A stretch of DNA of 64,000 nucleotides from Phoronis australis (Eukaryota > Animalia > Phoronida): contig NMRA01000082.1 in the NCBI GenBank assembly GCA_002633005.1, positions 954,133 through 1,018,132 on the forward strand, written 5' to 3'. Position 1 is the first letter of the stretch. Each line of letters starts with the position of its first letter. This document shows, piece after piece, positions 15,288 to 63,623 of the stretch. A model generated the notes under the pieces. The model was not told where the DNA came from, did not search any database, and saw nothing but the letters and a program-made list of their open reading frames with translations. Position numbers and translations under genes: made by a program.

Positions 15288-17691
15288 ATGCATACTGGGA
15301 TTCTGTTGTGGATTCTGCTAGCCGTGCAGGTCGCAGCCCAATTTGAGGCTGGAAATGACGTCACATCGGGCGAGTCATGGTCACCTGCTGCGGGCTCCAT
15401 CTTGATCTCTGACGCTAGGCTCACAGCAGGATATGTCCAACAGTTCCAGTTGTACGTGGCTAGCCTAAATCCAGTGAACATTCAGGTGTGGACGTCACTG
15501 GGCGCCAGTTCATATCGACTGAAGTATCAGCAAACTTTGACTCCTACTAGAACTGGTGAATTTACTGTAAGTAGTGGCGTATTTTGTTCACTTACGATTA
15601 ACACTCATGTACATGTATTCACACCTGGTGTGCATCATGTGTGTAATGTGTCACATCATGTTAGGAAAGTTTGAGACATATGTTTGAACTCTCTGTGACA
15701 TGTTTGAAGTCTGTTACATGTTTGAACTCTCTGAGTCATGTTTAAAATGTTTGAGCCATGTTCAAGATGTCTGAGCCACGTCTGAACTGTCTGAGCCACA
15801 TCTGAACTGTCTGAGCCATGTTTAAATGTCTGAGCACTGTTTGAAATGGTAACCATGTTTGACTAGCCTGGGTTTTTCTGCTATACTAGACAAATTGTTA
15901 AAATTGTGGGTTATATAGTGATAGTATAAATTGATATTGTTTTGCAGTAAAATGACATGCTTAGATAGTGAACATTTGTGTAAGGAATGTAGGAACATGA
16001 AAACGTGACGTGAAGTTTGCACCAATGAGGAAAAAGGACACTAGTTTGTGATTTTTGGTTACTTGGCTAATAAAATTGTTCTACCTATGTCAAGATCCAG
16101 TGTCCTAGTGATATTCCAGGAGTGCTTCTGCGGGGTGTGAGATAAACGAGAAAATGCTTGAAAATACTAGTGGAAAAATAAAACACAATTAGAAAATTGA
16201 CTGCACTCATACTGTGGTGGAGCAGACAGCGGCCATTTGTATTAAAGGCATTTTTTGATGATAAACACTCTGCATTTACCCAAATCTGGGAATGCGAGTG
16301 CCAAATATTGACTCCTATTTTCAAGCACACGTACTCCCCTGTGTCAAGCTAGTTGAATCACTCTGTATATGGAAAATTTCTCAAGTTGGCCTGAATGATG
16401 ATGGCTTTGATTTTAAAAGAAACATTTGAAAATTTGCCGAATTTCCACCTTTAAAGAAAGTTGAAAGCAATTTTGTTGCTCAGTTGTATACAGTACTCCA
16501 GTATGTGTATAGTGCAGAACTGAACAATGTTGGTGTTTTTAAATCTCTTTGGTTGCCGTAATTGTCACATTGTTCTTAAGGCATGATAGAATGGGCCGCA
16601 TGCAATTGTCAGTTATTATTAAGACTTGCAATAGGTGTCACTTTTCTAGTATCTGCCCCGATTGTTAGCCTGTGCATGTCTTGATACACCACAAAACATA
16701 AGGTCATTCTTCTTTACTGTTACATTGAACCCTAATCAGCCCCAACACTGTATAAAAATAACCAGTCGTTTTTACCTGCCAAAATCTCAGCTCTCAATTT
16801 CGATGTTCAGCTCACACACAGGTTACAGGTTGCACACCCTTGACAAGTAATGCTGTTTGTTTTTTTGGGTGTTACAATAAAGCTTTCAAGAGTTGATGCC
16901 AAAGTTGTGCTCATGCAGCTAATGTGAGTTGGGCAAATCTCAGCTCGTTAATTTCAATCCCTGATGCTAGTGATTAACTTCTTTTCAGCCATAACTTTAT
17001 AATTAACCAAAACTTTTTCTTCAGGTCTATCCAAGCTCCCCGCTTCAAGTGGACACCAGTGACTACTTGGGTTTCTCCCACAACACTGTGACTTCAGGTC
17101 TGGGGCGACGGCGTGCCACGAGCGGCGTGTCCATCGCCGCACTGATCTACAGTGCAGGGCCCGTAAGCGTCGGTCAGACTTACACACTCTCGGATCATCC
17201 AGACCCCAACTACTTGTACGCCATCAAGGCTGTTGTAGACACTTGTAAGTGGTTACTGTAATTCATTTTTGGCAAAAAAATGCATGAGTGGGAACCCATG
17301 CCCCGCCCAAGAACAATTTGAGGTCAATTTTTTAACAGCGAATGGTCCACAACAGAATTTGTGTTTTGTGGTGGAAGGCGGGTTTATTTCTGGTTGACGT
17401 TCAAACAAGCTGGAGTATGTCAACGCAGTTTTTGAAGAAAGAGAGGAAAGAGCAGGCTTCAGATAGTTTTTGAGAACTGAAATCTGGTTTTGACAACAAA
17501 AATAGCAAAGCACAGGGACTGCTCAATATTAGGAGCAAACTGCATTGTGGTTTTAAAATGTCCAAATAGATGATGCTTGGGATGTTCTTTTGTTGCAGCG
17601 GGGAAAATACCTGCCACAGGAAACCAAGTGACCACTGTACCGCCTTCAGTCAGCGCCCCACAGTCGTTTGTTCCTCAGCCGGATATTGGAG
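15288..17691 (+). CDS. Signal peptide + repeat domain 1 + linker (15288-15566, 17025-17244, 17599-17691)
   Basis: Hydrophobic leader [37 protein letters not shown] motif; [13 protein letters not shown]. Confidence 0.88.

Positions 17692-63623: not shown

Follow-up and report, generated by a model that had tools for sequence, protein, structure and literature searches.

The window analysed here, a 64,000-nucleotide stretch of Phoronis australis DNA, carries on its plus strand a gene whose 50 exons, lying between positions 15288 and 63623, splice into a single stop-free reading frame of 3105 aa, as the first-pass annotation had proposed (Table 1). All 50 donors of this exon model are GT, 38 of them in the form GTAAG or GTGAG, and the 49 acceptors read CAG (37) or TAG (12). 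The protein consists of a predicted signal peptide, 16 head domains (D1-D16) separated by linkers, and a collagen stalk. The first half of each head is encoded in phase 1 in and phase 0 out, that of D1 lying on the ATG exon and that of D2 being split over two exons by one extra intron, while the second half lies on a phase 0-1 exon (here termed B) in 16 of 16 heads and the linkers on phase 1-1 exons in 14 of 14, so that duplication or skipping of a head together with its linker would preserve the reading frame. Since an AG acceptor stands 1 nt 5' of the ATG, a 5' UTR exon probably lies upstream. At the other end, the proposed continuation beyond the window holds as a probable one, suggested by the absent stop codon and a gtgagt donor at 63624; no further exon is evident in the final 377 nt.

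Table 1. Features of the collagen gene, in window positions.
Feature	Span	Strand	Exons and remarks	Basis
Signal peptide	15288..15338	+	ATG; predicted, 17 aa, ending V-A-A	by eye on sequence
Domain 1	15339..17691	+	exons to 15566 and 17025-17244; linker 17599-17691	exon model, tree
Domain 2	19032..23169	+	19032-19183, 20262-20339, 22715-22940; linker 23089-23169	exon model
Domain 3	23915..25979	+	23915-24144, 25210-25450; linker 25875-25979	exon model
Domain 4	26400..27210	+	26400-26629, 26976-27210; without linker exon	exon model
Domain 5	27664..29536	+	27664-27896, 28300-28534; linker 29423-29536	exon model
Domain 6	30671..32814	+	30671-30903, 31912-32146; linker 32713-32814; first of ten young copies (D6-D15)	exon model, tree
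Domain 7	34044..35798	+	34044-34276, 34972-35206; linker 35712-35798	exon model
Domain 8	36640..38501	+	36640-36872, 37564-37798; linker 38403-38501	identity to D7
Domain 9	39372..41752	+	39372-39604, 40096-40330; linker 41648-41752	exon model
Domain 10	42327..44156	+	42327-42559, 43235-43469; linker 44052-44156	exon model
Domain 11	45173..46852	+	45173-45405, 46019-46253; linker 46754-46852	exon model
Domain 12	47140..49421	+	47140-47372, 48577-48811; linker 49332-49421	exon model; RNA joint 49421>49727
Domain 13	49727..51863	+	49727-49959, 51058-51292; linker 51780-51863	exon model; RNA joint 51292>51780
Domain 14	52141..55344	+	52141-52370, 53519-53753; linker 55237-55344	exon model; RNA joint 53753>55237
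Domain 15	56737..58215	+	56737-56969, 57679-57913; linker 58150-58215	exon model
Domain 16	58743..60274	+	58743-58972, 60049-60274; divergent, adjoins collagen	exon model; RNA depth on 60049-60274
Collagen stalk	61185..63623	+	61185-61276, 62525-62750, 63456-63623; phase-1 donor at end	PF01391; exon-restricted RNA depth

Head-to-head with this gene, on the minus strand, lie exons of an NDUFS7-like gene (8385-8604 and about 9243-9400; PF01058, E 1.5e-5, below the cut-off), which look divergent from the usual NDUFS7 sequence. The segment 341-7694 holds a tandem duplication of ~3.4 kb (93.5%), TAC microsatellites and a 116-bp tandem repeat; within it, 2144-3209 and 6629-7694 are 100% identical and adjoin two N's (3210 and 6628), and therefore probably represent assembly redundancy. 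The introns of the collagen gene contain two copies, 84.5% identical, of an element of ~520 bp (17719-18223 and 59269-59777), probably a non-autonomous transposon, on which RNA reads that stem from other loci pile up in their hundreds with a strand bias, as well as tandem repeats at 15680-15848 (20-bp x 8.6), 32984-33435 (234-bp x 2), 39680-39880 (15/62-bp) and 48155-48425 (29-bp x 9). Rfam gave no match.

The 16 heads measure 149-157 aa each in the spliced model, in agreement with the first-pass count, and a six-frame HMM scan of the whole window found no extra copy. The consensus first drawn up for them describes D6-D15, which are 69-98% identical, and fails for D1-D5 and D16, which are only 22-44% identical to the rest. 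The heads bear the signature G...G...Q-x-W-R...[FY]-x-L...G...G-D-x-x-G-F. A Trp in their first loop does not vary among the first-half exons aligned (14 of 14). As for the reported Thr/Pro linkers, they are present, although on only 14 exons, with none between D4 and D5 or between D16 and the collagen; they sum to 446 aa (26% T, 17% P, 12% V, 10% S) and are presumably O-glycosylated. The collagen is, as described before, an unbroken run of 50 Gly-X-Y triplets, after which comes GSGLV; it is basic, with 22 K/R against 5 D/E. Besides, the 3105 aa contain no N-x-S/T sequon versus 19.3 expected (0 of 2000 shuffles), nor do eight non-redundant domains taken separately (0 versus 8.8 expected; 1 of 2000 shuffles), whereas the collagen-bearing relatives introduced below hold 2-17. 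One possible, speculative reading of this absence is the avoidance of self-ligands.

Expression was followed in three raw-read RNA runs bearing the same species label, over the regions 48500-64000 and 59800-63670. Among the joints listed, three agree with the model: 49421>49727 (8, 5 and 6 reads in the three runs), 51292>51780 (2, 2 and 12) and 53753>55237 (0, 5 and 6). Over the last exon of D16 and the three collagen exons, depth is confined to exons (~1-9 per bin in the best run), with nearly all reads in the mate direction expected of plus-strand RNA, and most non-repeat intron bins around them have zero depth. The gene is real, expressed and intact. Nonetheless, the joint 60274>61185, which would link D16 to the collagen, is absent among the joints listed, where intronic repeats dominate, so that a single transcript for array and collagen is inferred. 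Together with the apparent assembly redundancy elsewhere in the window, this leaves a very small probability that array and collagen are separate genes or that the array is inflated by assembly error. However, the phases agree across 60274>61185, no new signal peptide precedes the collagen, and in three phyla there are relatives in which this domain leads straight into collagen. An inflated array is hard to reconcile with the closest copies, D7 and D8: 98% identical as proteins, they differ by 15% in DNA, their units being 84.9% identical over 2.4 kb including introns, with a dS of 0.065, which identifies a real duplication and not an assembly echo. In addition, a DNA run, possibly of the source sample itself, covers 59974-63670 with overlapping contigs of unique depth.

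The head domain had been left unnamed in the first pass, and rightly so, as no Pfam family matched. Over 32 sequences, no family emerged consistently from Pfam, NCBIfam or PHROGs (one weak phage tail-fibre match in 1 of 32); PF18560 (Lectin_like, Cwp84) matched 0 of 32 at E <= 10, DUF4082 (PF13313) and PHR (PF08005) matched none of the 32 in Pfam, and sequence searches of the PDB returned no match below E 0.9. Among named families, the Atlas ranks Lectin_like, PHR, DUF4082 and a glycosyltransferase N-terminal domain closest, each with a score under 0.9 (DUF4082 0.83, PHR 0.84), which makes them leads only; DUF4082 membership of the heads, for which there is this Atlas lead and no Pfam match, is not supported. 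Modelling of a Haliotis homologue nevertheless predicts with confidence that the heads are beta-sandwiches of lectin-like fold, the same as that of PF18560 in Cwp84. The full-length Haliotis model is of low confidence (pLDDT 44.8), a helix at 651-679 being all that it reveals. Sequence identity to the heads is just 7-13% for the Cwp84 lectin-like domain (PF18560; PDB 4ci7), the CBM-like domain of PbeAcXE (7tog), PHR and DUF4082, and these fold relatives reside in bacterial enzymes, phage particles and cytosolic animal proteins, whereas the heads of the window gene are borne on collagen. A structural calcium site has been described in the Cwp84 lectin-like domain (PMC4089489).

Relatives were sought with HMMER among 1.84 billion representatives, where the first-half exons as query gave 42 matches at E <= 0.001. 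An iterated whole-domain HMM confirmed 22 of these; the other 20 were dropped, 18 having no whole-domain match and 2 only short partial ones. P0004 appears to be a bacterial repeat protein. Four confirmed matches bear collagen, all annotated as 'uncharacterized': two from the nemertean Tubulanus polymorphus (XP_074651551/XP_074650029; 7 and 4 heads), one from Haliotis asinina (XP_067665690; 2 heads) and one from Lingula anatina (XP_023930365/6; 2 heads). Their collagens count 49, 47, 56 and 49 triplets, and all four continue from the collagen into EGF domains, a transmembrane helix and a cytoplasmic tail. A second search added H. cracherodii, of the same layout, and H. rubra, which stops within the first EGF. 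The membrane helix is found in every C-terminally complete relative with domain and collagen (P0001, P0002, P0005, P0049, P0031/P0043), and a Trp-centred motif is common to the helices of 6 of 6 proteins inspected, the collagen-less P0003 included. The Tubulanus loci LOC141906210 and LOC141906211 (P0001, P0006, P0002) are consecutively numbered, which suggests a local cluster.

The other matches are tandem-domain proteins without collagen. P0021, P0022, P0046 and P0047, of 1700-2000 aa, hold at least 6 cysteine-flanked copies on Asn/Gln-rich linkers; P0007, P0008, P0009 and P0050 (unnamed JGI/Logan records) are small, with just 2-3 copies, P0007 and P0009 starting with signal-peptide-like segments. 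One of the four larger proteins comes from the crab parasite Paramarteilia canceri (Rhizaria), so the domain is not confined to animals, and the Atlas holds unnamed clusters at 0.92 in Annelida and Porifera, taxa that rest on few members. No relative turned up when a metagenome was scanned with exon B16, and word-index protein searches (proteins of 136-2000 aa) with one exon and with the exon-A alignment found no match. Homology is further supported by the second-half exons, which were never used as query and match the Haliotis domain, and by a profile built from six non-window proteins, which matches all 16 domains of the window gene, although this comparison draws on a shared alignment. The window gene has the homologous ~155-aa head domain and places its heads directly N-terminal to a collagen of ~50 triplets, a junction taken from the exon model and not from the RNA joints listed. 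Of the members seen of this uncharacterised lophotrochozoan family with heads, collagen, EGF and transmembrane segments it is the largest, and its architecture is not unique but occurs in shorter versions in Nemertea, Mollusca and Brachiopoda.

A tree of 58 rows, from which four near-duplicate proteins, single-exon fragments and partial domains were omitted, places D3-D16 in one clade (99/88) and D6-D15 in a tight clade within the array (100/99), pairs D1 with the first domain of the Lingula relative (99/96), and shows four Tubulanus heads (P0001) as a separate recent expansion (100/99). The array grew by tandem expansion, and it did so under purifying selection: dN/dS is 0.09-0.25 in 45 of 45 pairs among D6-D15, with no hypervariable block. 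These values bear on the idea of a diversified immune scaffold whose heads would each recognise a microbial ligand of their own. The low identity of D1-D5 and D16 to the other heads would suit it, the combination of collagen and lectin-fold heads resembles the defence collagens, and in its basic character the collagen is reminiscent of that of class A scavenger receptors, which binds polyanions. Yet 10 of the 16 heads are 69-98% identical at these dN/dS ratios, which are pairwise and not site-wise, so that pattern recognition by diversification finds no support in the dN/dS of the repeats and this scaffold appears quite improbable.

Compared with known collagens, the window gene was correctly distinguished in the first pass from collectins, ficolins and C1q, in which a short N-terminus and the collagen come before a C-terminal CTLD, FBG or C1q head: ~2950 aa precede its collagen and its heads match none of those Pfam families, its own C-terminus lying outside the window. 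FACIT collagens XII and XIV and collagen VII have long N-terminal globular arrays that form three arms on a collagen tail, although these arrays are of FN3/VWA type and secreted; the streptococcal Scl1 and Scl2 have an N-terminal head, a collagen stalk and a C-terminal anchor, although with one head and a sortase anchor. Both are architectural analogues, with no homology implied. A membrane-borne collagen stalk presenting extracellular domains is shared with the vertebrate MACITs XIII/XXIII/XXV, SR-A, MARCO and CL-P1. Class A scavenger receptors carry a cytosolic tail and their anchor N-terminally and their heads C-terminally. MACITs are likewise type II, with the anchor at the N-terminus (PMC4678570). 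The family described here is inverted relative to both, running from signal peptide through heads, collagen and EGF to a C-terminal anchor, and the window protein itself has a signal-peptide-like N-terminus and, in a hydrophobicity check, no segment of membrane length within the 3105 aa seen.

The first-pass annotation had called the protein secreted. Because the collagen-bearing relatives run from collagen through EGF and helix to a tail, a membrane-anchored form is more likely, and an EGF-TM base quite probably lies beyond the window, judging from these relatives. A secreted or shed matrix protein of mucus, cuticle, tube or shell, in which an anchorless or released trimer would cross-link the matrix through its heads, is nonetheless conceivable, if unlikely. 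The signal peptide, the lack of a hydrophobic segment in the part seen and the mucin-like linkers agree with it, as do the domain-only P0009, P0021 and P0022, which have a signal peptide and no membrane helix. In Lingula anatina, Luo et al. 2015 describe 17 genes for EGF-domain collagens, 4 of them in the shell proteome, as shell-matrix 'fibrillar' collagens defined by Pfam domains; the portions of this text and supplement at hand (PMC4595640) make no mention of a head domain or membrane anchor. Lingula LOC106169885 shares their layout of a short collagen followed by EGF_CA/cEGF/FXa_inhibition domains, whereas the window gene has 16 heads (versus 2-7 in the Tubulanus, Haliotis and Lingula relatives, all with heads N-terminal to collagen) and its own EGFs do not fall within the window. 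Secretion is opposed by the helix in all C-terminally complete relatives with domain and collagen, by the low read depth in the three RNA runs, whose tissue is not stated, and, weakly, by the absence of the Lingula relative's accessions from one supplementary file of a 2026 shell-proteome paper (PMC13425148), a file that may be incomplete or use other identifiers. Neither the accessions nor a head-collagen layout appear in the available parts of PMC13425148 and PMC8878817. In the literature searched, outside of which lie most subscription journals, no description of the head domain or of the layout with heads, collagen, EGF and TM was found, nor any of six accessions of relatives.

We favour, at slightly less than even confidence, a membrane-anchored homotrimer in which up to 48 beta-sandwich heads would attach, through avidity, to glycans or to a similar polymer of repeating structure. 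The EGF-TM base would hold a type I homotrimer at the membrane, collagen chemistry pointing to trimerisation, under which the earlier figure of 48 heads holds. With assumed lengths of 4 nm for a domain and 0.25 nm for a linker residue, a stalk of ~43 nm would lift three flexible arms of at most ~175 nm each. With D6-D15 so nearly identical, these ten heads would raise the avidity for a single ligand and not the breadth of recognition, since the copies are homogeneous and under purifying selection, and such a geometry would suit adhesion or the capture of particles or microbes at an epithelial surface. That the ligand is a glycan or similar polymer, the most likely choice given the predicted fold, has roughly even chances. 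The heads might instead bind protein or each other, like PHR domains and capsid cement proteins, which have the same fold, and the anchored protein would then be an adhesion receptor, a glycocalyx spacer or a filament; the CBM-like members of this fold contact polysaccharide, though, and the invariant first-loop Trp and the Atlas leads named above also weigh against protein binding, which seems rather unlikely.

The Cwp84-lectin-like/DUF4082-type fold is otherwise known in bacterial surface proteins and phage tails. A more far-reaching and distinctly tentative proposal is that these genes are unrecognised lophotrochozoan type I transmembrane collagens, reversed in topology with respect to the membrane collagens and scavenger receptors of vertebrates, which would bear a new animal lectin family of this fold and have gone from 2 to 16 heads through exon-cassette duplication, the window gene being a 48-valent, sequon-free capture device that would reach ~200 nm from the cell, for instance on a feeding or adhesive epithelium.

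The present analysis defines an animal extracellular domain family that has no Pfam name and ties it to a membrane-collagen layout across three phyla, and its phase-1 exon cassette clearly illustrates how valency can be tuned through repeated, independent tandem duplication. If the heads bind glycans, they would constitute a new lectin class for invertebrate adhesion and immunity, and if the proposed anchoring is true, some Lingula 'EGF collagens' would be cell-surface receptors and not fibres.
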